Shown: one piece after another, positions 8,255 through 36,733 of the stretch
Layout: each line of letters starts with the position of its first letter
How positions within the stretch are numbered: position 1 is the first letter of the stretch
DNA from: a virus
Lineage: Duplodnaviria > Caudoviricetes
DNA length: 64,000 bases
Reading direction: 5' to 3' (one strand)
IMG/VR virus record: IMGVR_UViG_3300012979_000030
Span: 42,511 to 106,510 of that record
Translations under genes and position numbers: made by a program
The notes under the pieces: model-generated
Told to the model about the DNA's origin: nothing
The model's input: the letters and a program-made list of their open reading frames with translations, nothing else
The model's database searches: none

Positions 8255-9205
8255 TTATTTGTTTAGAATGTTTTTAATTTCCACTAAACACGCCATCAAA
8301 TTCAAATCTTTAAATGCAACTGTTGGATGTTTATAAAGATATTCAGCAACCTTAACAATTATTTGTTCCCATTTATTTCTATCAACAGTAAATACATCTA
8401 ATTTGTTATATATTATTTTATATATGTTCTCAATCTCATCCTCATTGAAACTTGTAGCAATAAGTTTTTGAACATCATTACAATGCTTTCTATTATGAAC
8501 AAAATCTAAAATAGGTAGTAGTTTATCTAAGTTAGAAACTTCATATTCTTTTTTAAATTTACTTAATTCACCATTAATAACATTCTTATTAATATCATTA
8601 ATACATTTTCGCAAATCAGGATATGATAACTTAATATATTCAACAACATCTTCCATAGAATATTTAATATTCTCTTTTGTAAGAATATTCACAATTCTTG
8701 TTACAAATTGTTGTTGGTCAAGTTTTTGGAAACTATATGATTCACATCTTGAAAGAATTGCAGGTGTAACCTTATTAACATTATTAGTTGTGAAAATGAA
8801 TCTACACCATAATGAATACTTTTCCAATACATACTTTAATGAATCTTGTGCTTGTGCTGATAATCTTTCAAATTCTTCAATAATAACAACCTTAATTTTA
8901 TCATCTAATGATGGAACAGAAGCATATTCAATGATTCTTCTAGTATCATCAATACCTGTTTTATCAGAACCATTGATAGTAATGTAGTCGCTGATGTTTA
9001 ATTCATTTAGAATAACATTAATTGAAGATGATTTACCTGTTCCCGGAATCCCATATAATAAAATATGAGAATCAAATGAACCTTTTTCCTTCCATTGTTT
9101 TAACTTATCACCAAACTCTTTATTGGTAATAACTAAATCTTCAATTGTTTTTGGTCTATATTTTTCTGTCAATAATTCCATAATATTTTCCTTATAAAAC
9201 TTCAT
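8255..9205 (-). CDS. Sliding-clamp loader AAA+ subunit (T4 gp44 / RFC-small-like)
   Basis: EKYRP, GIPGTGKS, NGSD..GID, AQDSLK, ILSRC, YPDLRKCIN. Confidence 0.92.
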   Translation of the reverse strand: MKFYKENIMELLTEKYRPKTIEDLVITNKEFGDKLKQWKEKGSFDSHILLYGIPGTGKSSSINVILNELNISDYITINGSDKTGIDDTRRIIEYASVPSLDDKIKVVIIEEFERLSAQAQDSLKYVLEKYSLWCRFIFTTNNVNKVTPAILSRCESYSFQKLDQQQFVTRIVNILTKENIKYSMEDVVEYIKLSYPDLRKCINDINKNVINGELSKFKKEYEVSNLDKLLPILDFVHNRKHCNDVQKLIATSFNEDEIENIYKIIYNKLDVFTVDRNKWEQIIVKVAEYLYKHPTVAFKDLNLMACLVEIKNILNK

Positions 9206-9466: not shown

Positions 9467-10390
9467 CTATTTTAACCCTTTAAACAAATATTTAATAACA
9501 TTGGCATTCCATCCATTACCACAAGCATTATATCGGTTTCCATCACTAATGTCAATGGTTTTTCCATCTTTCAACCCATATTTGGTGTAATTATCGGGTA
9601 ATGACTGACACCGTTCATATTCTATTGGTAACATTTTTCTGTTTCTATCACCTTGTCTAACTTTTTTATGAGTATAACCCCCATTAACACAAGTTAATGT
9701 ATAACATTTACTATTTAAATTACTGACTCTTTTACCCATTTTAAAACAATTAATTTTTAATGTACAGATTGGGTTGGCATCTTCACCATGATATTCATAA
9801 TCATACTTATACCAATATTTGTTTGGAACATTTTCTTCTGGTTCAACAATATCCTTTAACAATTCTGTTGATTTTTCAATTGGTTGTCCATCATTGGGAA
9901 TATTTGTCCAAAACAATCTCTTTCTTCTTTGTGCCGAAAAATCAGCAGCATCTAACATTATTGGTTCAACACCCATGAGTTCAGTAATAATGGTTTTATC
10001 AGATTCGGGCATACCATAATTGTTTTCTAATAAGAACTTAATATTAGGATTAACAGATTTTAAATGATTTAAGATTTCAACATATCTATAAAACAATCCA
10101 GATTTAGAACCCTTTAAACCTTCTCTTTCATTTTGTTGACCAACTCTAATAATAGAAAGGTCTGTACAAGGACTTCCACCAATTAATAAATCAATTGATT
10201 TCCAATCAATATCCCAATCTCTCCAATTATTAACATCACCTAATTGAATTGTATTTGGATAATTATATTGTGTAATAACAATAGCTGATTCTTCAATCTC
10301 ACTTGCATAATATGTTTCAACAGTTATGCCTAACTGATTTAAGCATAATTGTCCTGTTGAAATCCCATCAAATAAACTTAATACTTTCAT
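9467..10390 (-). CDS. C5-cytosine DNA methyltransferase
   Basis: SLFDGI (motif I), GGSPC (IV), LLEN (VI), QRRKRLFW (VIII), GNGW (X). Confidence 0.92.
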   Translation of the reverse strand: MKVLSLFDGISTGQLCLNQLGITVETYYASEIEESAIVITQYNYPNTIQLGDVNNWRDWDIDWKSIDLLIGGSPCTDLSIIRVGQQNEREGLKGSKSGLFYRYVEILNHLKSVNPNIKFLLENNYGMPESDKTIITELMGVEPIMLDAADFSAQRRKRLFWTNIPNDGQPIEKSTELLKDIVEPEENVPNKYWYKYDYEYHGEDANPICTLKINCFKMGKRVSNLNSKCYTLTCVNGGYTHKKVRQGDRNRKMLPIEYERCQSLPDNYTKYGLKDGKTIDISDGNRYNACGNGWNANVIKYLFKGLK

Positions 10391-12354
10391 TTTAATCCCT
10401 CAAAAATAAACTTAATAACCTCTGCTGTCCAACCATTACCAACACATTTAACTCTCTGTGTGTAACTAATTTCTTGTTTCTCACCATTTAAGATTCCATA
10501 TTTAGTATAATTATCAGGTAATGTTTGTAATCTTTCTGATTCCAATGCTGTTGGTTTATAGAATTGTCCATCAGGATATTTAATATTAGTTGCACCAGAG
10601 TTAGCAATAGATTGAGAACATGTTAATGTTTTAGATTTTTGTTCCAATGTTTTAACAGAACCCCATGCTTTCTTAAATGATAATGTTCCCTCTTTTTTAG
10701 CATACATTTTATCTGTAATGTTAAACTCTACCTTATCTTCAATTGGTTCAACAATATCTTTTAATGTCAGATTCTTATCTTCTAACTCACCACTAATTTC
10801 AATATTTGTCCAATACAATCTTTTTCTTCTTTGTGCTGAAACAATTGCTGAATCAATGAGAATTGGTTTTACACCTAATAAATCATTAAATGTTTGTTCC
10901 CATTCTTTTTTCATAACAACATTTTCTAATAAGAACTTAACATTTGGATTAACAGATTTAATATGGTTTAAAATTTCCAAATATCTATAAAACAATCCTG
11001 ATTCAGAACCTTCTAAACCTGTTCCATTCCCAGCATTACTTAAGTTTTGACAATTATGCACAACAACTCCATTGGCAGTATATGAATTATCTTCTTCTAC
11101 TTCCATATTATAAACAATTGTTTGTTTTTCTTCTGTTGTTATTGAAGTAATCTGTGACCATGAATAACTCATATCTTTGTCAAAAAACGACCTATCTTGT
11201 GGATGGGTATGTGTTTTAAATCTAATTTGATATGTATTATGTTGATTTACTTCTCTACCTTCAATAATATATTTGGATGGTCTAATAGTATATGTCATCC
11301 CAACAGGCACATTATACACTTCAGTAATTAATAACTTTAACTCATAGGCTAATTGCTTACTTATTGTTGTTATACTACAAAGACCATTTCTATTTTTTGG
11401 GTATGAACCATCAGCACTAATATATCCATCTAATAATGCTTTCTTTTTGTTTAATGGTAACCCCCATACATCTGGGTGAATACATTTATTAATAGCACCA
11501 ATCCCACATTTAGAAAGATAATCAAGTAATTCCATGGAACAAATTCTAAATTTATATGTTGTTCTTTCTTCTAAATAATTATAATTATATCCAAGGTTAT
11601 CCATTATCTGTTTAATTTCATTAAATTCAGATTTACCACAACATAATATCACTTTATACATATGACTATTTTTTCTATTTTTTCTTTTTGTTTTTTGAAT
11701 CCAACCATCTCCAATAAATCTTCCAACAAAATACCAAAAATCTTCACTATGGGTATCAGTATCAATGCCCAGATTTGTATTATAAGTAACTCCTAAATAG
11801 TGTTTCGTTTTATCCAAATCTTTTGCTTCCACCCATTGTGGTTCTTTATAATAACGAACTTTGGATTTTTTCTTCCATCCTTCTTTTGTTTTCATACCTT
11901 TGTCTTCATATTGGTAATATTTTTCTCTAGCATAGAATGGATGATTTGATGTTGTCGTAATATTATCAAAACCCATCCCTTTGATATTATACACATTATC
12001 AACCAATTTACCACCAACATTCAATACTTTTCTGTATCTACTATTATGTGTTAATACCATATCACCAACTTTTATTTCTTCAATTGGTTTCATACCCTTA
12101 TCCGTCATTACTAATGTACCAGCAACAAAACATGGACTCCCCCCAATAATCAAATCAATTGATGACCAATCAATATCCCAATCTTTCCAATTATTAACAT
12201 CACCCAACTGAATTGTATTTGGATAGTTATATTGAGTAATTGCAATAGCATACTTATCAATTTCTGATGCATAATATGTTTCTACATCAATTTCCAATTC
12301 TTTAAGACAATACTGTCCTGTTGAAATACCATCAAATAAACTAATTACTTTCAT
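10387..12354 (-). CDS. C5-cytosine DNA methyltransferase interrupted by an intein
   Basis: SLFDGI, GGSP|intein|CQNLS, LLENV, QRRKRLYW, GNGW. Confidence 0.92.
   Translation of the reverse strand: MKVISLFDGISTGQYCLKELEIDVETYYASEIDKYAIAITQYNYPNTIQLGDVNNWKDWDIDWSSIDLIIGGSPCFVAGTLVMTDKGMKPIEEIKVGDMVLTHNSRYRKVLNVGGKLVDNVYNIKGMGFDNITTTSNHPFYAREKYYQYEDKGMKTKEGWKKKSKVRYYKEPQWVEAKDLDKTKHYLGVTYNTNLGIDTDTHSEDFWYFVGRFIGDGWIQKTKRKNRKNSHMYKVILCCGKSEFNEIKQIMDNLGYNYNYLEERTTYKFRICSMELLDYLSKCGIGAINKCIHPDVWGLPLNKKKALLDGYISADGSYPKNRNGLCSITTISKQLAYELKLLITEVYNVPVGMTYTIRPSKYIIEGREVNQHNTYQIRFKTHTHPQDRSFFDKDMSYSWSQITSITTEEKQTIVYNMEVEEDNSYTANGVVVHNCQNLSNAGNGTGLEGSESGLFYRYLEILNHIKSVNPNVKFLLENVVMKKEWEQTFNDLLGVKPILIDSAIVSAQRRKRLYWTNIEISGELEDKNLTLKDIVEPIEDKVEFNITDKMYAKKEGTLSFKKAWGSVKTLEQKSKTLTCSQSIANSGATNIKYPDGQFYKPTALESERLQTLPDNYTKYGILNGEKQEISYTQRVKCVGNGWTAEVIKFIFEGLK
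11053..12132 (-). mobile_element. Intein (360 aa) with LAGLIDADG homing endonuclease
   Basis: Begins CFVAGTLV, block B TSNHPF, LAGLIDADG-like FVGRFIGDG and LLDGYISADG, ends YNMEVEEDNSYTANGVVVHN; +1 residue is Cys. Confidence 0.93.
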
Positions 12355-12384
12355 TTATACTCCTAACCAACTTTTGTTATATTT

Positions 12385-13491
12385 TTAACCAAATAAGTTT
12401 TTAAAAATTGCTTCTAACACATTTACAACTATTGAATTACCTGCTTGTTTATATTTTTGACAATTGGACATATTTTTAACTTTATCTATTTGTTCATCTT
12501 TCCAACCCATCAATCTCCAACACTCTTTTGGTGTTAATTTTCTAATTCTCAATGGGTTATTAGATACAACAGTTTTTAATAAATGTGGTGTTGATGCATG
12601 AGTTCCAGCAGCTATTGTTCTGCATATACCATCTTGATGTTGAATTAAATCTTGTTGATGTTTAGCATTAGATGATACTTCAATTATTTTATTTGTTTGT
12701 GGTTCAGCAATAGCACACACAGCACCATGATTTTCCTTAATAGTTGGTGCAATACCATTTATATCCATAACTCTACCGCATTCGTGTCCAGATGGTTTAT
12801 AATTACCCAATACTTTTATTCTTGGTTCTAATATTTTTTCTTTAATATTTTTTTCAACATCTTTCATAATTGGTTTCATTTTTTCATTATTTAAATAATA
12901 TCTTTCATCAACTGATTCTTCTAAAATGTCTTTCAATCTTAATGTTAGTTCTTGTGGTTCAGGAAATACATATGGTTTATGATCTCCTAAAATAGATACA
13001 CAAAATACTCTTTCTCTATTTTGTGGAATACCAAAATCTTTTGAATTAAGAACTTTCCAATAATTTGTATATCCCATTTCTTCTAACACTTTTAACCATT
13101 CTTCAAAAGATGGTAAGAATTTTTTACCAACAAGATTTTTTACATTCTCCATTAAAAGATACTTTGGTTTAACTTTTCTAAAAATCTTTTCACATTCCCA
13201 TAATAAAGAACTTCTTGAACCAGAATCTTTTTCTAATCCTTTTTGAAGACCAGACAAAGAAATATCTTGGCAGGGGAATGAATAAGTAATTAAATCCCAT
13301 TGATTTTCATATAAATCATCTTCATTAATTTGACTTATATCACCAAGATTTTCTGTATCTCCATGCAATTGGTTATAAACATTTATTGCATACTTATCAA
13401 TATCACATTGTGTAGATGTATGCTCTATACCAATATTTTTTAATGCTTGTGTTTGAGAACCAATCCCACTAAATAGTTCTAATACTTTCAT
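12385..13491 (-). CDS. C5-cytosine DNA methyltransferase
   Basis: ELFSGIG, SFPCQD, MENVKNL, PQNRERVF, LTPKECWRLMG, YKQAGNSI. Confidence 0.93.
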   Translation of the reverse strand: MKVLELFSGIGSQTQALKNIGIEHTSTQCDIDKYAINVYNQLHGDTENLGDISQINEDDLYENQWDLITYSFPCQDISLSGLQKGLEKDSGSRSSLLWECEKIFRKVKPKYLLMENVKNLVGKKFLPSFEEWLKVLEEMGYTNYWKVLNSKDFGIPQNRERVFCVSILGDHKPYVFPEPQELTLRLKDILEESVDERYYLNNEKMKPIMKDVEKNIKEKILEPRIKVLGNYKPSGHECGRVMDINGIAPTIKENHGAVCAIAEPQTNKIIEVSSNAKHQQDLIQHQDGICRTIAAGTHASTPHLLKTVVSNNPLRIRKLTPKECWRLMGWKDEQIDKVKNMSNCQKYKQAGNSIVVNVLEAIFKNLFG

Positions 13492-13556
13492 TTATACATA
13501 CTCCATATCTTATACCACAATATTACTATATAATCCTCATAATATCAAGTATAATT

Positions 13557-14360
13557 TTAATAATTACAAATAAAAACTTCTACTGATTCTTCCACATTAC
13601 TTTGTTTTTTTGCTTTATTATTAAAGGTTTCAATTCTATGCCAATTGAAATTCATAAGTTTTTTCAAATACTCATTAGCAACACCCTTATGAATTGCCAT
13701 ATTAGATAATCCAAATTTTACACCATTTTTATCTAAATCCAAAATAAAGTTATAAAGTTTTTCTTCTAATTCTTTACTCCAATAACAATTATATCCTGCT
13801 TCTGTAATAAGATATGGTGGATCAAGATATACAAAAGCATTATTTGGTATATACACAGTATTAAAACTTTGATTAGTGAACAATAATGAATCAAATGTTT
13901 TCATTCTTTCTTGGTATAATCTAAGTTTTTCAACAGTATTATCATTGATACATCTTTTACCAAAAGTTTGATTAAACTTAAATTGTTTATTAAATCTCAT
14001 CATATTATTAGTACAAGATGAACACAATACAAAGAATTTATAAGGGTCAGGATTTTCATTATATTCTGCTCTTAACTTATTATAACCATCTTGGTCATCC
14101 TTTGATACAGAATATTCTTTACACTTTTCAAGGATTTCATCTAATGATTTAGTGTTCAATTCTTTATAAAATCCCATTAAATCTGTAATAATATCATTAG
14201 CAATTATATGTTTAAATGATGAGTTCATAAAAACACTTCCACCACCACAAAATAAATCAACCAATGTATCACAATCTTTTGGGAAATGTGAATACAATTC
14301 TTCTAATTCAGGATACTTTGTTCCAGTATAATTAAATGGTGATTTAATATAATTATTCAT
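13557..14360 (-). CDS. Dam-family (D12, alpha class) N6-adenine DNA methyltransferase
   Basis: SPFNYTGTK, DLFCGGGSV, RFNKQFKFN, YLDPPY, EVFICNY (T4 Dam-like). Confidence 0.9.
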   Translation of the reverse strand: MNNYIKSPFNYTGTKYPELEELYSHFPKDCDTLVDLFCGGGSVFMNSSFKHIIANDIITDLMGFYKELNTKSLDEILEKCKEYSVSKDDQDGYNKLRAEYNENPDPYKFFVLCSSCTNNMMRFNKQFKFNQTFGKRCINDNTVEKLRLYQERMKTFDSLLFTNQSFNTVYIPNNAFVYLDPPYLITEAGYNCYWSKELEEKLYNFILDLDKNGVKFGLSNMAIHKGVANEYLKKLMNFNWHRIETFNNKAKKQSNVEESVEVFICNY

Positions 14361-15162
14361 TTATTCTATCCTCTGCTATGTTAAAATAATTTGTATCTAA
14401 TTCAATACCTATGAAATTTCTATTTAATTTTTTGCATGCTACACCTGTTGTTCCTGAACCCATTGTGAAATCCAATACAGTATCTCCCTCGTTAGTATAA
14501 GTTTTAATGAGATATTCCATAAGAGCTATAGGTTTTTGTGTTGGGTGTAGATTTGTATTGATTTCTTTGTTAATTTTTAAAACAGATTTAGGATAACGAT
14601 AACCATCATCTGCATTTCTAATTCGCTTTAAATCTATTCCAATCAATTCTTTGTTTGTGGTAGGATTGTTAATAGTTTTTCTTCTATCAACCTTACCATA
14701 TCTATCATAATCTTTAGTTTCAAATACTTCTTTTAATTGTTTTTTATCCATATTTTCTATTTCAGAAAATTCCAAAACTTTATATTTTTGTGGATTATAT
14801 TTATGAGTACCATTTGAAAAGACTGATATTAACTCGTGATATTTAAGAGGAGCATTTTTTGCACCCATAAAATTAGCTGCCTTTTGTTTTTCCCAAACCC
14901 AATCATACTTGAAATTCTTAATATTAGAACATCTTAATATACTACTAAATGGTTCACTACCAAACAAACAAATAACACCATTGTCTTTAATTAGTTTATT
15001 ACAACAATCCCACATCTCATCAAAAGGAATAACACTATCCCACTTACAAGCAGTTGTTCCATATGGTGGGTCAGTAATTATGGCATCAACTTTTGTCCCA
15101 CATTTAATTAGTTGTTCCATAATTTCTAAACAATCTCCGTTATATAAACTAATTTGACTCAT
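14353..15162 (-). CDS. N6/N4 DNA methyltransferase (beta class)
   Basis: GDCLE, TDPPY, HPTQKP, LDFTMGSGTT, FIGIE. Confidence 0.92.
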   Translation of the reverse strand: MSQISLYNGDCLEIMEQLIKCGTKVDAIITDPPYGTTACKWDSVIPFDEMWDCCNKLIKDNGVICLFGSEPFSSILRCSNIKNFKYDWVWEKQKAANFMGAKNAPLKYHELISVFSNGTHKYNPQKYKVLEFSEIENMDKKQLKEVFETKDYDRYGKVDRRKTINNPTTNKELIGIDLKRIRNADDGYRYPKSVLKINKEINTNLHPTQKPIALMEYLIKTYTNEGDTVLDFTMGSGTTGVACKKLNRNFIGIELDTNYFNIAEDRINE

Positions 15163-15889
15163 TTATTCTCTCCTCTGCTATTTTAAAATAATTTGTATCT
15201 AATTCAATACCAATAAATTTTCTATTACATCTCTTTGAAGCAATACCACAACTTCCTGCCCCCATACAATTATCTAAAACAACTTCTCCTTCATTAGTGT
15301 ATGTTTTAATTAACCATTCTAAACATTCAACACTTTTTTCTGTTCTATGTTTAGCAATACTTGGATGTGGTTTTGGAAAAGTTAAAATACTTGTTGGATA
15401 TTTTTCTGTTGACCCTTTTCTCAAATCATCTGTTGCATCAAAATGTCCATAGTTCTGATTCTTTAATTCTTTTGTTTTATAAGCATTACCCTTTCCATGT
15501 AGTGGTTTCCCTTGTGTAAATTGTGGATTATATGTAGGCAACTTTTTATAAAATATTGCTATCTGTTCATGTTGCCTCAATGGCATTCTTTTAGCATTTA
15601 AAAAACCACTTGTCAATATTTTATTCCATACCAAATCATATCTAAATAATTTTCTGTTAGAATTTACTAAATCAACATAAAATAATCCTTGTCCAAATAA
15701 AGCAATACAACCATTGTCCTTAATAATTCTTTCATATTCTTTCCACAATGGTTCAAATGGAATTTTAACATCTGCCTTGTTTTGTGTCAATTCATATGGC
15801 AAATCACAACAAATCATGTCAATTGATTTGTTTGGAATTGTTTTCATAATCTCTAAACAATCACCATTGTATAAATCAATTTGACTCAT
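15149..15889 (-). CDS. N6/N4 DNA methyltransferase (beta class)
   Basis: GDCLE, CDLPY, HRTEKS, LDNCMGAGS, FIGIE. Confidence 0.9.
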   Translation of the reverse strand: MSQIDLYNGDCLEIMKTIPNKSIDMICCDLPYELTQNKADVKIPFEPLWKEYERIIKDNGCIALFGQGLFYVDLVNSNRKLFRYDLVWNKILTSGFLNAKRMPLRQHEQIAIFYKKLPTYNPQFTQGKPLHGKGNAYKTKELKNQNYGHFDATDDLRKGSTEKYPTSILTFPKPHPSIAKHRTEKSVECLEWLIKTYTNEGEVVLDNCMGAGSCGIASKRCNRKFIGIELDTNYFKIAEERINESN

Positions 15890-15890
15890 T

Positions 15891-16730
15891 CTATTTAACC
15901 TTTATATATAAACTTTCTTTAACATTTACATCATTATTATTTCCAATAACTCTCCTAAATGATGAATTACCACTATTTAATAATATGTGTTTATTATATA
16001 ATTCTTTTGGAACATTGTAAATATTATTTTCTTCACCAGCAATTCCATCAAAACTTAAAAAATAATCACTTTTACAATTTTTTAAATAATCCCATAACTT
16101 ATCATATTCAATTGTTCCATAATACATACCTTTTGTATTGGCATAAGGTGGGTCTAAATATAAAAAATCATTTTCAGATGGATTTATTGTATCATATGAT
16201 TGATTAATAAATTGAACATCATATTTGTTCAATAATTCTGACCATTTATCCAATATTGGTTTTAATCTTATGGGTTCTATTCCATTTCTTGTAACATGAA
16301 ATGAATTATTAAATTCACCATTTTTATTATATCTTGGCATACCATTTGTTGTGGTTCTCATAATAAAGAAAAATAACAATGGGTCTTTTGTTTGATTGAA
16401 TAATGTTCTTATATGATTAAAAAATTGTTTCTTTCTTTCTAAATCATTATCTTTATTCAATTCATTCCATAATTCTGTATATGATTCTAAAATAAGATTG
16501 GGATTACTTTTTATAAAATTAAAAGTATCTATTAATCCTTTATTTAAATCATTACAAACATAATGTTTAAATTTATTTGGACAATGATTTAAGATATAAA
16601 ATAATACAGAACAACCACCACAAAATGATTCATAATATGTATCATAATTTTTATCAATCAATGATACAATCTGTTCTGCTTGACTTCTTTTTGAACCACT
16701 CCATTTAATTATTGGTTGTAATTTAGACAT
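15891..16730 (-). CDS. Dam-family N6-adenine DNA methyltransferase
   Basis: IKWSGSK, ESFCGGCSV, RYNKNGEFN, YLDPPY. Confidence 0.9.
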   Translation of the reverse strand: MSKLQPIIKWSGSKRSQAEQIVSLIDKNYDTYYESFCGGCSVLFYILNHCPNKFKHYVCNDLNKGLIDTFNFIKSNPNLILESYTELWNELNKDNDLERKKQFFNHIRTLFNQTKDPLLFFFIMRTTTNGMPRYNKNGEFNNSFHVTRNGIEPIRLKPILDKWSELLNKYDVQFINQSYDTINPSENDFLYLDPPYANTKGMYYGTIEYDKLWDYLKNCKSDYFLSFDGIAGEENNIYNVPKELYNKHILLNSGNSSFRRVIGNNNDVNVKESLYIKVK

Positions 16731-17457
16731 TTATCCTCTCTCTTGCTATTTGAAACATTTCTTCATCAGATTCTATACCAATAAAATCATATCCCAATTC
16801 TTGACAAACCAATCCACAAGTACAACTTCCCATAAATGGGTCTAATACTGTTGAACCTTTTGGTACAAAATCATTCAAAATTCTTTTAATCAATTCTGTT
16901 GGAAATCCTGCTTTAATGAATTTATTTCTTTCTCTTTTTATATCCCATATATTTGTTTCTGTTCCACGAGCAAAACCAAAATAATCAAATGAACGATTAT
17001 AAGGTTTAGAATTTTGGAATACAATTATGAATTCATATTGTGAATTAAGAACACCTTTTTGCATTGCTGGTTGACCATAACATTTATTCCAAATGATTAT
17101 TTCCTTAATTTTTTCAGCATATTTACCCATTAATTGTAGCAAAGCAACTTTATTACCAGTAATCATTTGAATGTTATAAAACATTAAATCAGTTACTTGT
17201 AATGCTTTACTAATAAACTCATCTTGGAACTTAAAATATTCTTCCATTGGTAAATCATCTCTATACTTATCATATTTTGTAGAAAAAGCACCAACATTAC
17301 CTTTCCAACCCCATCTGGACATATATTTACCAGTATGGATTCTTAAATTCATATTATATGGTGGAGATGTGATAATGACATCAACTTTTTTATTTTGGTC
17401 TATCATTTGTTGGAGAATTTCCAAACAATCTCCATTATATAAATCAATTTGACTCAT
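16723..17457 (-). CDS. DNA methyltransferase, beta class, SPPY type (probably N4-cytosine)
   Basis: Start reassigned to MSQIDLYNGDCLE (17457); TSPPY, LDPFMGS, FIGIE. Confidence 0.88.
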   Translation of the reverse strand: MSQIDLYNGDCLEILQQMIDQNKKVDVIITSPPYNMNLRIHTGKYMSRWGWKGNVGAFSTKYDKYRDDLPMEEYFKFQDEFISKALQVTDLMFYNIQMITGNKVALLQLMGKYAEKIKEIIIWNKCYGQPAMQKGVLNSQYEFIIVFQNSKPYNRSFDYFGFARGTETNIWDIKRERNKFIKAGFPTELIKRILNDFVPKGSTVLDPFMGSCTCGLVCQELGYDFIGIESDEEMFQIARERINV

Positions 17458-18157
17458 TCTCATATTCCTTTGTAATTCTTTCAACTGCCATATTAAAAAA
17501 TTCTTCATTCTTCTCAATACCTATAAATTGTCTATTTGTTTTAATGCAAGCAACTCCTGTTGTTCCAGAACCCATATATGGGTCTAAAACTATATCACCT
17601 TCATCACTTCCTATTGGAATCATATTTAAGCAAGGTTCTAACGGTTTTAATGCAGGATGATTCCATTCTTTAACACCACCAATAGAATAATGATAATCAG
17701 TTCTTTTTTGATGATATGTTCCAGTTAATGTTCTACCTTTCCACAAATGAACACAATAATCTTTGTCTTGATACTTACCTCTTACATTTGGTAAAGCATT
17801 ATTTCTATAAAGACAGACATCTTGCCAATTCCATTTATTATCTTTTGCCATAATTAAATAATCAATGAATTGTTTTTTAGAACACCATATTTGATAATTA
17901 ATTGCTTTACATACTCTTTTAAATTCTGGGAACATTACATCAACATCAAAACCATCTGATATATCAGCATTTACAATACCATCATAAAATTTTCTTCCAC
18001 CTTTACTTTCCATAAATGAACCAATATTACCCGAACTATGAATAATATATGGTGGGTCAGTATGAATTAATGTAATAGAATTATCTTCTAATTCTTTTAT
18101 CACTTCTTGACAATCACCATTTATTAGTAAGCAATTTCCAATCTTAATTGTTTTCAT
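17444..18157 (-). CDS. N6/N4 DNA methyltransferase (beta class)
   Basis: GDC, TDPPY, HPALKP, LDPYMGSGTT, FIGIE. Confidence 0.9.
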   Translation of the reverse strand: MKTIKIGNCLLINGDCQEVIKELEDNSITLIHTDPPYIIHSSGNIGSFMESKGGRKFYDGIVNADISDGFDVDVMFPEFKRVCKAINYQIWCSKKQFIDYLIMAKDNKWNWQDVCLYRNNALPNVRGKYQDKDYCVHLWKGRTLTGTYHQKRTDYHYSIGGVKEWNHPALKPLEPCLNMIPIGSDEGDIVLDPYMGSGTTGVACIKTNRQFIGIEKNEEFFNMAVERITKEYENESN

Positions 18158-18878
18158 TGATTCGTTCCTCTGCTAATTTAAAATAATTTTCATCTAATTC
18201 GATTCCAATAAAATTTCTATTAGTTCTTTTACAAGCATCACCAGTAGTTCCTGAACCCATACAAAAATCTAAAACTGTATCTCCTTCATTGGTAATCATT
18301 TCAATACATCTTTCCATAAGTTTAATTGGTTTTTGTGTTGGATGATTTACTTTTTCTTTACTATTATGTGGTAATGCAGGAATATCAGACCATACATCAG
18401 ATAAAGAAATTCCATCTTTTAAATAACCAGTTGTATATTCAGGTCTTTTACTATCAACTTTTATTTTAATATTATTAAATGTAAAATTCTTTTCATCTTT
18501 TGTATAATAACAAATTGGTTCATAACCAGAAGCAAGTGCTTTACCTCTTGTGTTATTAAAAGCTCTTTTCCTTGACCATATTATAATTCTTTTTTCATAA
18601 AATGTTTTATCTAACTCATTACAAATTTTTCTATTATTTTGTCTGCCAGTAAAAATTAAGACAGAACCAGTTTCTTTTAGCATTTGAAAGCATTTATTAA
18701 AACAACTATTACACCAACCAATATAATCACTTATATCACACCATTGGTTATCCCATTTATTATCAACTATTTGAAAATATGGAATATCTGTGATAATAGC
18801 ATCAACTTTAACACCTTTATCAATAAGTTGTTGCATTACTTCTAAACAATCACCATTGTATAAATTAATTTGACTCAT
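18144..18878 (-). CDS. N6/N4 DNA methyltransferase (beta class)
   Basis: GDCLE, TDIPY, HPTQKP, LDFCMGSGTT, FIGIE. Confidence 0.9.
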   Translation of the reverse strand: MSQINLYNGDCLEVMQQLIDKGVKVDAIITDIPYFQIVDNKWDNQWCDISDYIGWCNSCFNKCFQMLKETGSVLIFTGRQNNRKICNELDKTFYEKRIIIWSRKRAFNNTRGKALASGYEPICYYTKDEKNFTFNNIKIKVDSKRPEYTTGYLKDGISLSDVWSDIPALPHNSKEKVNHPTQKPIKLMERCIEMITNEGDTVLDFCMGSGTTGDACKRTNRNFIGIELDENYFKLAEERINENN

Positions 18879-19536
18879 TTATTCTGTCCTCTGCTAATTT
18901 AAAATAATTAATATCTTTTTCAATACCTATGAAATCATAACCAAGTTCTTTACAAGCAACTCCTGTTGTTCCACTACCCATAAATGGGTCAACAATAGTA
19001 TAATCTTTTGGAAGTATTCCTACAATATTTTTCATAACCTCTAATGGCATGACACATGGATGATTAATACCATTCTTCCCTTTACTAACATTTTTTACTT
19101 GATTGATATTCCACCAATCATACAATTTTGAACCAATAATACCTCTTGCAATTCTTTCTTTAATCCTTTTATCATTAGGATTTTTATATGGTTGCCTTAC
19201 CTGATTAAAGTTTGGTTTTACACCAAAGAAGGCAATGTCCCTATGCTGTTTAGCAGTATTGCTATTATATACCCAACTAACAACTCTTTCTGGAAATATT
19301 CCCATTTGAAATGACAATTTATATAATGATTCAGGGTAATGAACAATAACGGATGGACATTTAGAAAAAATATCTCCAATCCACTCATAATATTCATCTT
19401 CTTTCATATTATCACTATATGATGAATAATGATAACCAATATTAAATGGTGGATCAGAAACCATAATACATTTTGTTAAATCCAAATTTGATAAAACATT
19501 ATTACAATCATTATTATATAAAGTTATTTTACTCAT
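18865..19536 (-). CDS. N6/N4 DNA methyltransferase (beta class)
   Basis: SDPPF, HPCVMP, VDPFMGSGTT, FIGIE. Confidence 0.9.
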   Translation of the reverse strand: MSKITLYNNDCNNVLSNLDLTKCIMVSDPPFNIGYHYSSYSDNMKEDEYYEWIGDIFSKCPSVIVHYPESLYKLSFQMGIFPERVVSWVYNSNTAKQHRDIAFFGVKPNFNQVRQPYKNPNDKRIKERIARGIIGSKLYDWWNINQVKNVSKGKNGINHPCVMPLEVMKNIVGILPKDYTIVDPFMGSGTTGVACKELGYDFIGIEKDINYFKLAEDRINESN

Positions 19537-19559: not shown

Positions 19560-19901
19560 TTAGATATTTGATATTACACGTTTACCACTATCAATTAATC
19601 TATTCATTATAAATTGTGTAGTAGAATCATTATTATTGATAATACCATAATCACAATCATTAATCAAATATTTAATAACCTCTAATTCATTTGAGCATAA
19701 AATGTTTTTATAAAAGATGTTTTTATAATTTGAATTTCTCTCAAATCCATAATGATATACAATACATTCAATATTATTATTAATACAATATTTTATATTA
19801 TCATCTATGTATCTAAAATCATCAATGATAATTATAACATCATTTGGTGATATATTCTTTGATTTTGATATATCACCATAAATAAAAATTTTCTTGCACA
19901 T
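19560..19901 (-). CDS. Hypothetical protein, possibly a degenerate SLOG/YspA-like fold
   Basis: Alternating beta/alpha pattern; CDYGII...STT.F.M...GKRV weakly recalls the YspA C-terminus. Confidence 0.35.
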   Translation of the reverse strand: MCKKIFIYGDISKSKNISPNDVIIIIDDFRYIDDNIKYCINNNIECIVYHYGFERNSNYKNIFYKNILCSNELEVIKYLINDCDYGIINNNDSTTQFIMNRLIDSGKRVISNI

Positions 19902-19904
19902 ATA

Positions 19905-20507
19905 TTAATACTCCAATAAACCCATTTCAAGAACTTTTTGAATTGCTTGAATTCTATTTACTACACCCAATTTTCTAAAAATTATTGTCATATGTGCTTT
20001 AACTGTTGCCTCTGTAATATTCATATCATATGCAATTTGTTTGTTTGAAGATCCTAATCTCAAATGTTTAACAATTTTCAATTGCTGTTTAGAAAGTAAT
20101 GTCTTTGTTGTATATGGGAGTAATTCACTTGGATAATAATTATCACCCATTAACAGTAATGACAAAATTGACTTAATTTTTGCTATCGAATATTTTTTAC
20201 ACAATAATCCATTTGCATTAAACTCCATAAATTTCTTAACATCATCTGCACAAAATGATGATGCCATAAAAACAATCATACATTCAGGATTATGTTGTTT
20301 AATTATTGGGCAAACATATGATATATCCAAACTTCTGTGTTTTGATATAAAAACAATGTCAAAGTCATAATTAGTTAAACTTTTTTCTACATCATCATAT
20401 AAAATGCATTTATTAATATTAATATTTGGGTTTATTTCTTTCATCAATCCACTTAAACCCTCTGCAAACAATTCTTCTTCATAAACAATTAATACATTTT
20501 CTATCAT
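19905..20507 (-). CDS. Atypical NarL/LuxR-family response regulator (degenerate receiver + LuxR HTH)
   Basis: LSKQQLKIV..L..G.SNKQIA..MNITEATVKAHM..IFRKLGV.NR.QA; the receiver reads VYEE and DIVFIS, with no phosphoacceptor Asp. Confidence 0.88.
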   Translation of the reverse strand: MIENVLIVYEEELFAEGLSGLMKEINPNININKCILYDDVEKSLTNYDFDIVFISKHRSLDISYVCPIIKQHNPECMIVFMASSFCADDVKKFMEFNANGLLCKKYSIAKIKSILSLLLMGDNYYPSELLPYTTKTLLSKQQLKIVKHLRLGSSNKQIAYDMNITEATVKAHMTIIFRKLGVVNRIQAIQKVLEMGLLEY

Positions 20508-20804
20508 TTAAACTCCATTTTAACATTGTTATTTACATTTATTATTCAAAAAAATTTTACTAATTAAAACACCTTTTGTCAAAATAATACTTTAATACTA
20601 TATATATTACAACCAAAGTAGTATAGTATTAAATATAATATTGTTATTTATACTAATAAATCAAAATTATTTAGATTTAGATAAGATGATTTATTCTACT
20701 TATAAAATTAGTAGAAAAAATATTTTTTCTTTATTTTTCAATAACTTAATTATAAAACATCTTTCAATCATCATTATAAATAATTATGTTGAAGGAGAAA
20801 AACT

Positions 20805-36181: not shown

Positions 36182-36733
36182 ATGATTTTAAATCAAAATA
36201 TGAAAGTATATGATGATGGGTATATAAAATTTAAATACTCCCAATATTGTAATTTAGTCAAGGAGAAACTAAGGACTCATCAAAAACCACATGATAGAAG
36301 GTATAAACAGGGGTTTTTTGTTCCTTTACACCCATCTAAATGTATGAATGTTATGGAAACAAGTGAACCACAAGTTATAGTTTATAGAAGTGATTGGGAA
36401 AGAAAATTTGCAGAAAAATGTGATGAAACACAATCTGTAATAAGATGGGGGTCAGAACTTGTAAAAATACTATATAAGAATCCAGTAAAAAACAAGATGT
36501 CTTTCTATGTCCCAGACTTTTACATAGAATATCTGGATACAAATAAGCAATTAAAAAAAATGTTAATAGAAATAAAACCAATGGGGCAATCAAAATTAAG
36601 AGAGGCGAACAATGGTTATGATAAATTACAATTTGCCATTAACACTATGAAATGGGCAAGTGCAATTGATTTTTGCAAAAAAAGAAATATAGAATTTAAA
36701 GTTATGACAGAAAGAGAACTAGGCATATATTAA
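36182..36733 (+). CDS. Head completion nuclease (T4 gp4-like, TnsA-N fold)
   Basis: YKQG.F.P.HP.K, VYRSDWE, WGSE, YVPDF, LIEIKP, N..KW..A..FC, F.VMTE. Confidence 0.9.
   Translation: MILNQNMKVYDDGYIKFKYSQYCNLVKEKLRTHQKPHDRRYKQGFFVPLHPSKCMNVMETSEPQVIVYRSDWERKFAEKCDETQSVIRWGSELVKILYKNPVKNKMSFYVPDFYIEYLDTNKQLKKMLIEIKPMGQSKLREANNGYDKLQFAINTMKWASAIDFCKKRNIEFKVMTERELGIY

Follow-up and report, generated by a model that had tools for sequence, protein, structure and literature searches.

The 64,000-nucleotide stretch analyzed here (the window) represents the last 64 kb of the 106,510-bp IMG/VR virus record IMGVR_UViG_3300012979_000030 (Duplodnaviria; Caudoviricetes), and its positions 9467–19536 are filled by eleven back-to-back DNA methyltransferase (MTase) open reading frames (ORFs), M1 to M11, all on the minus strand. 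The best overall explanation, which we consider probable, is that these genes form an operon of orphan MTases that would serve anti-restriction methylation, would be built of exchangeable cassettes and would include one enzyme, M2, whose activity depends on protein splicing. An anti-restriction methylation island is the best reading because the MTases are orphan within the contig, diverse (three chemistries and differing target-recognition regions), under purifying selection in the five genes covered by that analysis, and unusual in number. The initial annotation of this DNA had already proposed a dedicated methylation-armor island giving broad protection or broad host range; the features just named speak for the island, whereas broad protection is what we infer from them and a broad host range stays a proposal of that annotation. 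It missed the main point, namely that, as judged from sequence comparison, the array is an exchangeable cassette set carried by related phages in varied orders and combinations.

Composition of the Methyltransferase Array

The eleven genes belong to three Pfam classes, which include three C5 enzymes (PF00145), two D12 enzymes (PF02086) and six beta-class N6/N4 enzymes (PF01555). All eleven Pfam scores exceed the curated cut-offs (E 1e-18 to 1e-75), all eleven frames are open, and neighboring genes either overlap by 4, 8 or 14 nucleotides (nt) or are separated by gaps of 1, 30 or 65 nt. The members are as follows, with lengths in amino acids (aa):

9467..10390, minus strand: M1, DNMT3-like C5 MTase, 307 aa (PF00145, E 1e-27), last gene of the array
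10387..12354, minus strand: M2, DNMT3-like C5 MTase precursor, 655 aa (PF00145 with Intein_splicing, Hint_2 and LAGLIDADG_3)
12385..13491, minus strand: M3, canonical C5-cytosine MTase, 368 aa (PF00145, E 1e-74; TIGR00675, 237 bits)
13557..14360, minus strand: M4, D12-class adenine MTase, 267 aa, T4 Dam-like (PF02086, E 9e-36)
14353..15162, minus strand: M5, beta-class MTase, 269 aa, DPPY (PF01555, E 4e-36)
15149..15889, minus strand: M6, beta-class MTase, 246 aa, DLPY (PF01555, E 1.5e-24)
15891..16730, minus strand: M7, D12-class adenine MTase, 279 aa, DPPY (PF02086, E 3e-31)
16723..17457, minus strand: M8, beta-class MTase, 244 aa, SPPY (PF01555, E 6e-32), start re-set to ATG 17457
17444..18157, minus strand: M9, beta-class MTase, 237 aa, DPPY, with a divergent N-terminus (PF01555, E 4e-24)
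18144..18878, minus strand: M10, beta-class MTase, 244 aa, DIPY (PF01555, E 2e-53)
18865..19536, minus strand: M11, beta-class MTase, 223 aa, DPPF (PF01555, E 3e-25), first gene of the array

The eleven contiguous, co-oriented MTases described in the initial annotation (three C5, two Dam/D12 and six beta-class) are borne out by the ORF list and Pfam, and the translations give the same beta-class motifs in the same order (DPPY, DLPY, SPPY, DPPY, DIPY, DPPF). Its further statement that no nuclease or other gene lies between the MTases stands for separate genes, as the ORF list of window 9467–19536 contains no other credible gene between the members, but not for domains, as a LAGLIDADG domain sits within the M2 intein. 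The listed ORF of M8 began at TTG 17517; read from ATG 17457 it begins MSQIDLYNGDC, as in its paralogs, and ATG 17457 is most likely the true start. An operon is recognized by genes on the same strand, overlapping stop and start codons, the lack of internal terminators and a shared transcript, and no terminator-like site was detected on the minus strand of the array.

Number of Methyltransferases Relative to Other Phages

Eleven MTases are about ten times the usual number for a phage, and the counts below speak against a chance pattern. A search with one beta-class gene returned 1744 matching places in 1583 cultured-phage records, approximately one per phage. Related stretches were fetched as ~20-kb loci, with 80 viral loci around beta-class homologs and 80 metagenome loci around M11 homologs. 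The viral loci contain 1 (50 loci), 2 (23), 3 (3), 5 (2) or 6 (2) MTases, the metagenome loci contain 1 (59), 2 (13), 3 (3), 4 (4) or 7 (1), and the maximum per ~20-kb locus among the 160 fetched loci is seven. Similarly, 72% of the MTase-bearing genomes among 8848 human gut phages possess a single MTase (PMC10477858). The cultured-phage, 160-locus and gut-phage counts all agree with the earlier statement that phage orphan MTases usually number one to a few. A review of jumbo phages mentions that several carry more than one MTase type and says no more (PMC7824862), and a literature search by number words for phages with six to eleven MTases returned plant and animal papers only.

Conservation and Selection of the Beta-Class Enzymes

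The beta class (PF01555) is recognized by motif IV, (D/S)PP(Y/F), near the N-terminus, a target-recognition domain (TRD) in the middle and motif I (DPFxGSGTT) near the C-terminus, and all six beta-class proteins exhibit this permuted motif order, with scores of 86–182 bits against a cut-off of 26.7 bits. In the set of beta-class homologs used for the tree and the motif counts (n = 111), DLPY, as in M6, occurs in 22 sequences and DIPY, as in M10, in 12, together 34/111, and by this comparison the two are family variants and not signs of decay. The SPP(Y/F) motif correlates with N4-cytosine enzymes, and M8 (SPPY) is probably a candidate N4-methylcytosine (m4C) enzyme. The best solved relatives of M10 are 9c3u/8urk, the H. 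pylori DpnA-type 5hek, M.RsrI and CcrM, and it also resembles M.MboIIA.

Purifying selection was observed for M5, M8, M9, M10 and M11, the five genes covered by the ratio of nonsynonymous to synonymous substitution rates (dN/dS), with values of 0.10–0.36. Orthologs of M11 with 75–100% identity occur in six metagenome contigs (dN/dS 0.10–0.19); the M10 ortholog in locus L119 is 84% identical (0.17); M9 orthologs are found in L116 (85% identical, 0.36) and L119 (79%, 0.13); M8 orthologs in L119 and L120 show 0.19–0.26; and the M5 ortholog in L118 is 87% identical (0.10). These ratios, together with the conservation of DLPY and DIPY among the homologs, make these genes look functional. The six beta-class proteins are 31–46% identical overall and have in common the first ~13 and the last ~45 residues. 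In the tree of the 111 homologs the six genes are not monophyletic, and M5, M6 and M10 each have closer relatives in other viral contigs. The lack of monophyly marks the beta-class genes as old lineages rather than recent local copies, and recent in-situ duplication was rejected on this ground.

That most of the genes are redundant or decaying leftovers of duplication, of which one or two remain active without conferring broad protection, appears unlikely. The shared N- and C-terminal ends of the array members and the non-canonical motifs of M1, M6, M8 and M10 would fit such a history, but all eleven frames are open, the divergent beta-class genes each group with different external homologs as old lineages would, dN/dS stays low in all five genes measured, among them M8, the DLPY and DIPY variants are conserved in the family, and the variable parts coincide with the target-recognition region.

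Cassette Shuffling Among Related Phages

The comparison of array content among related phages, which the initial annotation had suggested as a check, revealed the same cassettes in other orders, eight further types and one chimeric array. In the chimera, L116, identity to the window is 99% through M11 and up to codon 30 of M10; the contig then continues with an M5-like body (54%) and a further unknown beta-class gene, and rejoins the window at 86% identity over the last ~50 codons of M10 and on through M9, with both breakpoints falling in conserved ends. The order in L119 is M9′, M8′, M11′, an M5-like gene, a 275-aa ORF, a new D12 gene, a new beta-class gene and M10′, and L118 and L120 present still other cassette orders. 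The window and six short contigs together contain 19 MTase clusters at 65% identity, eight of which are absent from the window. The MTases of L120 are 73–81% identical to those of the window, whereas the other genes are 36–43% identical, indicating that the cassettes move between otherwise distant phages. In addition, a 4966-nt gut contig carries M11, M10, other DNA, M7, 1.4 kb of other DNA and M6, and lacks M8 and M9.

Read-contig joints linking one conserved end to another (e.g., 15226 to 18952) were not counted, their shorter side being 20–40 nt at a likeness threshold of 80%; the joints used as evidence are the intein-free joint described below (side 188 nt) and the multi-piece 4966-nt contig. 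The conserved 275-aa ORF of the related arrays (L119 3405–4229 and L118 4664–5488) begins with ..DKYYTP..LA, has no Pfam match and shows a weak PHROG match to ‘DNA methyltransferase’ (3e-10); it could represent one more, unrecognized kind of MTase among the cassettes. Between the cassettes, L119 635–1051 and L118 2244–2693 contain ORFs of 139–150 aa with weak PHROG matches to head maturation protease (E 3e-8 and 3e-7), an odd cargo.

The conserved ends are visible in the DNA as repeat families D1–D4, which coincide with the shared ends of the beta-class genes:

14348..14550, minus strand: conserved cassette end, example, comprising the 3′ end of M5 and its junction to M4 (repeat families D1–D4)
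15150-15352, 16728-16785, 17470-17575, 18145-18347 and 18876-18981, minus strand: equivalent end copies (DNA repeats D1–D4)

The first 45 nt of the beta-class genes are 82–91% identical within the array versus 31–69% to orthologs (an ungapped comparison, which understates the orthologs), and the last 57 nt are up to 93% identical within the array versus 51–81% to orthologs. The conserved last codons (..AE.RIN) read GCAGAGGA-AGAATAAATG, within which lie a Shine-Dalgarno-like GAGGA and the start codon (ATG) of the gene that follows.

Each beta-class gene would thus constitute a cassette, with a variable middle between a conserved 5′ end (MSQI.LYNGDC to motif IV) and a conserved 3′ end (motif I to FIGIE..YF..AE.RIN). 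The conserved 3′ end would supply the ribosome-binding site and start codon to whichever gene comes next, and homologous recombination in the ends would swap, add, remove and reorder cassettes among related and unrelated phages, so that each lineage acquires its own combination. The conserved 3′ end would in this way serve both translational coupling and recombination.

The C5 and D12 Enzymes

Members of the C5 family (PF00145/TIGR00675) are recognized by the FxGxG-type S-adenosylmethionine loop of motif I, the Pro-Cys of motif IV, ENV in motif VI, QxRxR in motif VIII and a variable TRD before motifs IX/X. In M3 every motif is canonical, and its scores of 252 bits (Pfam) and 237 bits (TIGR00675) are both above the cut-off. 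M2 exhibits PC (split by the intein), ENV, QRRKR and GNGW, and M1 exhibits PC, ENN, QRRKR and GNGW, with a passing Pfam score of 97.6 bits and a TIGR00675 score of 86.7 below the cut-off of 100.65. The best solved relatives of M1 are DNMT3A/3B/3C (E 2e-29), followed by plant DRM, with M.HaeIII at only 4e-4; the two extein halves of M2, which total 295 aa and are 54% identical to M1, likewise match mammalian DNMT3A/3B best.

The likeness of M1 and of the M2 exteins to DNMT3A/3B/3C (PDB 6w89, 5yx2, 6kda) extends over motifs I–VIII, including FDGI.TG, GGSPC.DLS and the SA..R.R.FW.N block. The DNMT3 family is defined by the catalytic domain together with ADD and/or PWWP readers, and by CpG specificity conferred through the DNMT3 TRD loop; in M1 and M2, by contrast, the match is limited to residues 2–175 (motifs I–VIII), ADD and PWWP domains are lacking, and the C-terminal target-recognition part is unrelated, without significant similarity. 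As far as the alignments indicate, M1 and M2 are relatives of the DNMT3 catalytic core and not members of the eukaryotic family, and since their C-terminal recognition part is unrelated to DNMT3, CpG specificity cannot be deduced for them. Viromes are already known to contain many phage genes that KEGG labels DNMT3A (PMC11309003).

The best solved relatives of M3 are the CpG-specific M.MpeI of Mycoplasma penetrans (PDB 4dkj; 4e-44) and M.HhaI (2e-40), with a likeness that is strong in motifs IV–VIII and weak in the TRD. M3 shares with M.MpeI the extended IV–VIII core (TYSFPCQD.S..GLQKG, PKYLLMENVKNL and QNRERVFC.SI), whereas its recognition domain aligns poorly and has ~55 extra residues, and M.HhaI scores nearly as well. 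CpG and GCGC were both considered as the specificity of M3, and the sequence fixed neither. The nearest genomic homologs of M3 (L196–L212; 40–67% identity) occur in metagenome-assembled genomes of uncultured gut Clostridia (Candidatus Caccovivens, Borkfalkiaceae, Christensenella-like), which gives a weak hint of the host clade.

The D12/Dam family (PF02086, TIGR00571) is recognized by an N-terminal FxGxG S-adenosylmethionine motif, then a TRD, then a C-terminal DPPY, with a score above the curated cut-off. M4 and M7 both carry FCGG and DPPY, and both exceed the TIGR00571 ‘dam’ cut-off of 114.85 (M4 with 124 bits in Pfam and 151 bits in TIGR00571; M7 with 109 and 119.9 bits). M4 aligns end to end with T4 Dam (1yfj, E 1e-46), and its likely target is GATC. 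M7 has DpnM (2dpm, 7e-15) as its best solved relative, a more distant pairing than that of M4 and T4 Dam.

An Intein at the Catalytic Cysteine of M2

M2 is interrupted by an intein within motif IV:

11053..12132, minus strand: intein of 360 aa inside M2 (aa 75–434), between Pro74 and the catalytic Cys of motif IV

Class 1 inteins are characterized by an N-terminal Cys or Ser, a block B TxxH, a C-terminal HN followed by Cys, Ser or Thr, two LAGLIDADG motifs with acidic residues and a conserved host site. The M2 insertion begins with CFVAGT, the first residue being Cys75, contains TSNH, and ends with VVVHN followed by C (VVVHN|C), and this +1 Cys is the catalytic Cys of the MTase; its LAGLIDADG motifs, GRFIGDGW and GYISADGS, retain acidic residues, and the Intein_splicing, Hint_2 and LAGLIDADG_3 profiles (Pfam) all score above their cut-offs. 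Since the intein parts the Pro of motif IV from the catalytic Cys, M2 is predicted to be unable to work before splicing.

A homolog search with M2, limited to proteins of 360–1147 aa, returned 4413 proteins at E<=1e-5; the best 120 of these all carry PF00145, and nearly all contain an intein at the same GG(S/F)P|C...HN|C site. A metagenomic protein 98% identical to M2 (P0001) lies on a 145-kb contig. On the other hand, a bovine-gut contig bridges positions 11046 to 12140 with 13 other letters and a joint side of 188 nt, exactly 1080 nt being removed, and reads DLIIGGSPCTNLSNA, i.e., GGSPCTNLS, across the site, which indicates that an intein-free allele exists in nature. The empty site of M1 matches the M2 insertion site at 16 of the 24 central nt, and the mismatch may explain why M1 stays uninvaded.

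Similar insertions were observed elsewhere. In the jumbo coliphage Escherichia phage vB_EcoM_JNE01 (longest contig 355,583 bases), a 629-aa ‘hypothetical’ protein (P0061), one of the 120 best homologs, is a C5 MTase whose motif IV bears this intein as well. A 650-aa ORF of an unrelated 92-kb viral contig (L012 9638–11587) matches both a beta-class MTase profile and an intein profile, suggesting that inteins also invade beta-class MTases. Inteins in actinophage methylases have been described by the Gogarten laboratory (PMC9957025), and there too a LAGLIDADG intein has invaded a phage DNA methylase gene with a patchy distribution among alleles; that case concerns another host gene family and phage group, and the words ‘cytosine’ and ‘catalytic’ are absent from that paper, whereas the intein described here sits exactly at the motif IV Pro-Cys of a DNMT3-like C5 enzyme. 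The literature search found no paper on a motif IV intein site in C5 enzymes.

Restriction Pressure and Orphan Status

The contig avoids several short palindromes. GATC was observed 53 times against 301 expected (observed/expected ratio 0.18), the ratios of GTAC, CATG and AGCT are 0.34, 0.38 and 0.45, and GGATCC, GTGCAC and TCTAGA do not occur at all. GATC is missing altogether from several unrelated viral loci with MTases, including L036 and L096. Read from base composition in this way, the strong avoidance of these tetranucleotides (GATC, GTAC and CATG) shows that the genome is under restriction pressure, and the phage appears to combine site avoidance with methylation, the latter being a prediction.

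The whole contig is moreover depleted in CpG (rho 0.19, with TpG/CpA at 1.43), a level similar to that of vertebrate genomes, and its 106 kb contain two GCGC sites and a single CGCG. The pattern looks like the footprint of 5-methylcytosine deamination. A footprint of the phage's own C5 enzymes was considered and could not be attributed to M1–M3, as L004 and L005 are also CpG-poor (0.24–0.26) with no C5 gene in the ~20 kb fetched of each; the host, phage C5 enzymes or selection are the candidate causes.

The initial annotation had added that the enzymes might reprogram the host methylome, and we find no evidence for this here. In its fuller form, that the main role is regulatory or offensive, with host methylation remodeled so as to disrupt host gene expression, replication or mismatch repair, to set the timing of packaging, or to set off or blind defenses that read methylation, the reading is very unlikely. 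The orphan MTases Dam and CcrM are established regulators in bacteria, P1 Dam is required for packaging, and a helix-turn-helix (HTH) regulator heads the gene block; regulation, however, needs one or two specificities, not eleven swapped between phages, specificities that turn over rapidly are the mark of an arms race against restriction, and the strong avoidance of GATC, GTAC and CATG indicates restriction pressure.

No restriction-enzyme model of PADLOC matched any of the 83 ORFs of the 106.5-kb contig that lie outside the array and the radical-SAM stretch, and no further MTase model matched the same 83 ORFs. The 27 ORFs of the radical-SAM stretch were scanned separately, with results given for the best 25 families. 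No separate nuclease gene lies within or beside the array. As far as the data reach, the MTases are orphan within the available ~41% of the genome.

The Pfam tally includes one ORF with a TnsA-like nuclease fold and one ResIII helicase. The former stands alone at window 36182–36733 (plus strand), among minus-strand virion genes and 16 kb from the array; its 183 aa begin with a domain of the TnsA-like endonuclease type (PF08722, E 4e-19), and it is probably a free-standing selfish nuclease. The least likely account takes the MTases as halves of restriction-modification systems whose nucleases, encoded in the missing 59%, would attack host or competing phage DNA while the phage protects its own; the incompleteness of the contig, the endonuclease fold of the TnsA-like ORF and the chloroviruses, which pair some of their many MTases with nucleases, favor it, but no restriction-enzyme model matched the other ORFs, Type II nucleases normally adjoin their MTase while the eleven here abut and leave no room, the cassettes of related contigs are also flanked by MTases or unrelated small ORFs, and the TnsA-like ORF lies far off on the other strand.

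Source and Genomic Context of the Array

The record has a CheckV completeness of 41%, which makes it part of a phage genome of roughly 250 kb. The G+C content is ~26%, and outside the array the contig encodes a tail sheath, tail fibers, NrdD/NrdG, GroEL/GroES, a helicase and a clamp loader. The source is an uncultured jumbo phage of the myovirus type from the guts of ruminants and other animals, and contigs at least 95% alike for parts of the region were found in bovine-gut, sheep-gut and animal-feces metagenomes (four studies). Megablast of the whole array against cultured phages gave just two matches, of 70–83 nt, and a viral-contig search with M7 as query gave no match. The array is flanked by the following co-oriented genes:

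8255..9205, minus strand: clamp-loader AAA+ ATPase (PF00004, PF13177, Gp44_lid; PHROG 168 clamp loader), the next credible gene downstream of the array
19560..19901, minus strand: 113-aa ORF between the regulator and M11, no Pfam or PHROG match
19905..20507, minus strand: LuxR/GerE-type HTH protein (PF00196, E 2e-15; weak receiver-domain match PF00072, E 3.5e-4; PHROG sigma factor/regulator matches)

By clamp-loader-based synteny, the two nearest viral relatives are L004 and L005 (46–49% identity), neither with an adjoining MTase array, which indicates that the array is not an old syntenic feature of the phage group. The LuxR/GerE-type HTH gene is the first of the co-oriented block, just upstream of the array, and its product could control array expression. 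A promoter-like site (11/12) lies at 20582–20554 in the divergent intergenic region; the region is not enriched in such sites, and the promoter scan gave 112 sites against 115 expected in shuffles, i.e., no better than shuffled sequence.

Proposed Function and Its Weight

Under the anti-restriction reading, the enzymes would methylate the replicating phage DNA after infection at many different short motifs, with 5-methylcytosine (m5C) coming from M1–M3, N6-methyladenine (m6A) from the D12 and most beta-class enzymes, and probably m4C from M8. With these marks in place, a broad range of host restriction-modification systems would no longer cut the progeny DNA. M2 would be made as a precursor and become active only once the intein splices out. 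That the enzymes are active, which motifs they target, when they act, that their marks protect and how the cassettes recombine are all things that we infer from sequence.

Several observations weigh against this reading. The motif I variants GSCTC (M8) and GAGSC (M6) are each unique among the 111 homologs and could weaken cofactor binding, and M1 has PCT in motif IV and ENN in motif VI in place of PCQ and ENV. Selection was measured for five genes only, M1–M4, M6 and M7 having no ortholog among the fetched loci. Inactivity or redundancy of most enzymes, which the initial annotation had named as fatal to its proposal, is countered by the dN/dS of those five genes and lent some force by the unique motif I of M8 and M6. 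The target motifs are predicted only, and the six beta-class enzymes could overlap in specificity. The avoidance of GATC is odd beside a T4-Dam-like M4, and may reflect incomplete protection, methyl-dependent nucleases or an M4 that does not target GATC. That the array is one co-transcribed, translationally coupled operon is argued from spacing alone. The contig, finally, holds only ~41% of the genome, so that nucleases could lie in the ~59% outside it; cognate restriction enzymes elsewhere in the genome, the other finding that was to overturn the initial proposal, had no match among the 83 ORFs scanned, which belong to that ~41%.

Phage-encoded orphan MTases are textbook counter-defense. The Bacillus phages SPR, phi3T, rho11s and SPbeta encode multispecific C5 MTases, in which several recognition modules share one protein and one catalytic core. 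Like these, the array would answer many restriction specificities at once with swappable target-recognition modules, whereas here each specificity would be its own complete enzyme, the unit of exchange being the whole gene or the gene middle. Known phage orphan MTases (T4 Dam, P1 Dam and those of the lactococcal 936-type phages; PMC4190342, PMC10477858) stand alone without a nuclease and are taken as anti-restriction, and M4 is a full-length relative of T4 Dam; known phages possess one to a few, whereas here eleven from three classes lie in one putative operon as exchangeable cassettes. The function itself is therefore not new, and what is unusual is the scale (eleven enzymes, three classes), the cassette architecture with its shuffling, and the intein at the catalytic Pro-Cys.

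The M2 intein allele represents a natural case where DNA methylation would depend on protein splicing, and vB_EcoM_JNE01 provides a cultured system in which this intein could be tested. More tentatively, and with somewhat less than even confidence, the cassettes may be of a plug-and-play kind, in which the conserved end of a beta-class gene would be at once cofactor module, ribosome-binding site and start of the next gene, and recombination handle, so that gut phages trade, stack and reorder specificities from a pool of at least 19 types, with one member gated by splicing at the catalytic Cys. If true, the system would parallel the shufflon-like switching of specificity in bacteria, in a phage version that operates between genomes rather than within one. 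If cassette exchange holds, the array would offer a convenient supply of small and varied MTases whose specificities are new, and a concrete mechanism by which large phages may track the fast-changing restriction repertoires of the gut.

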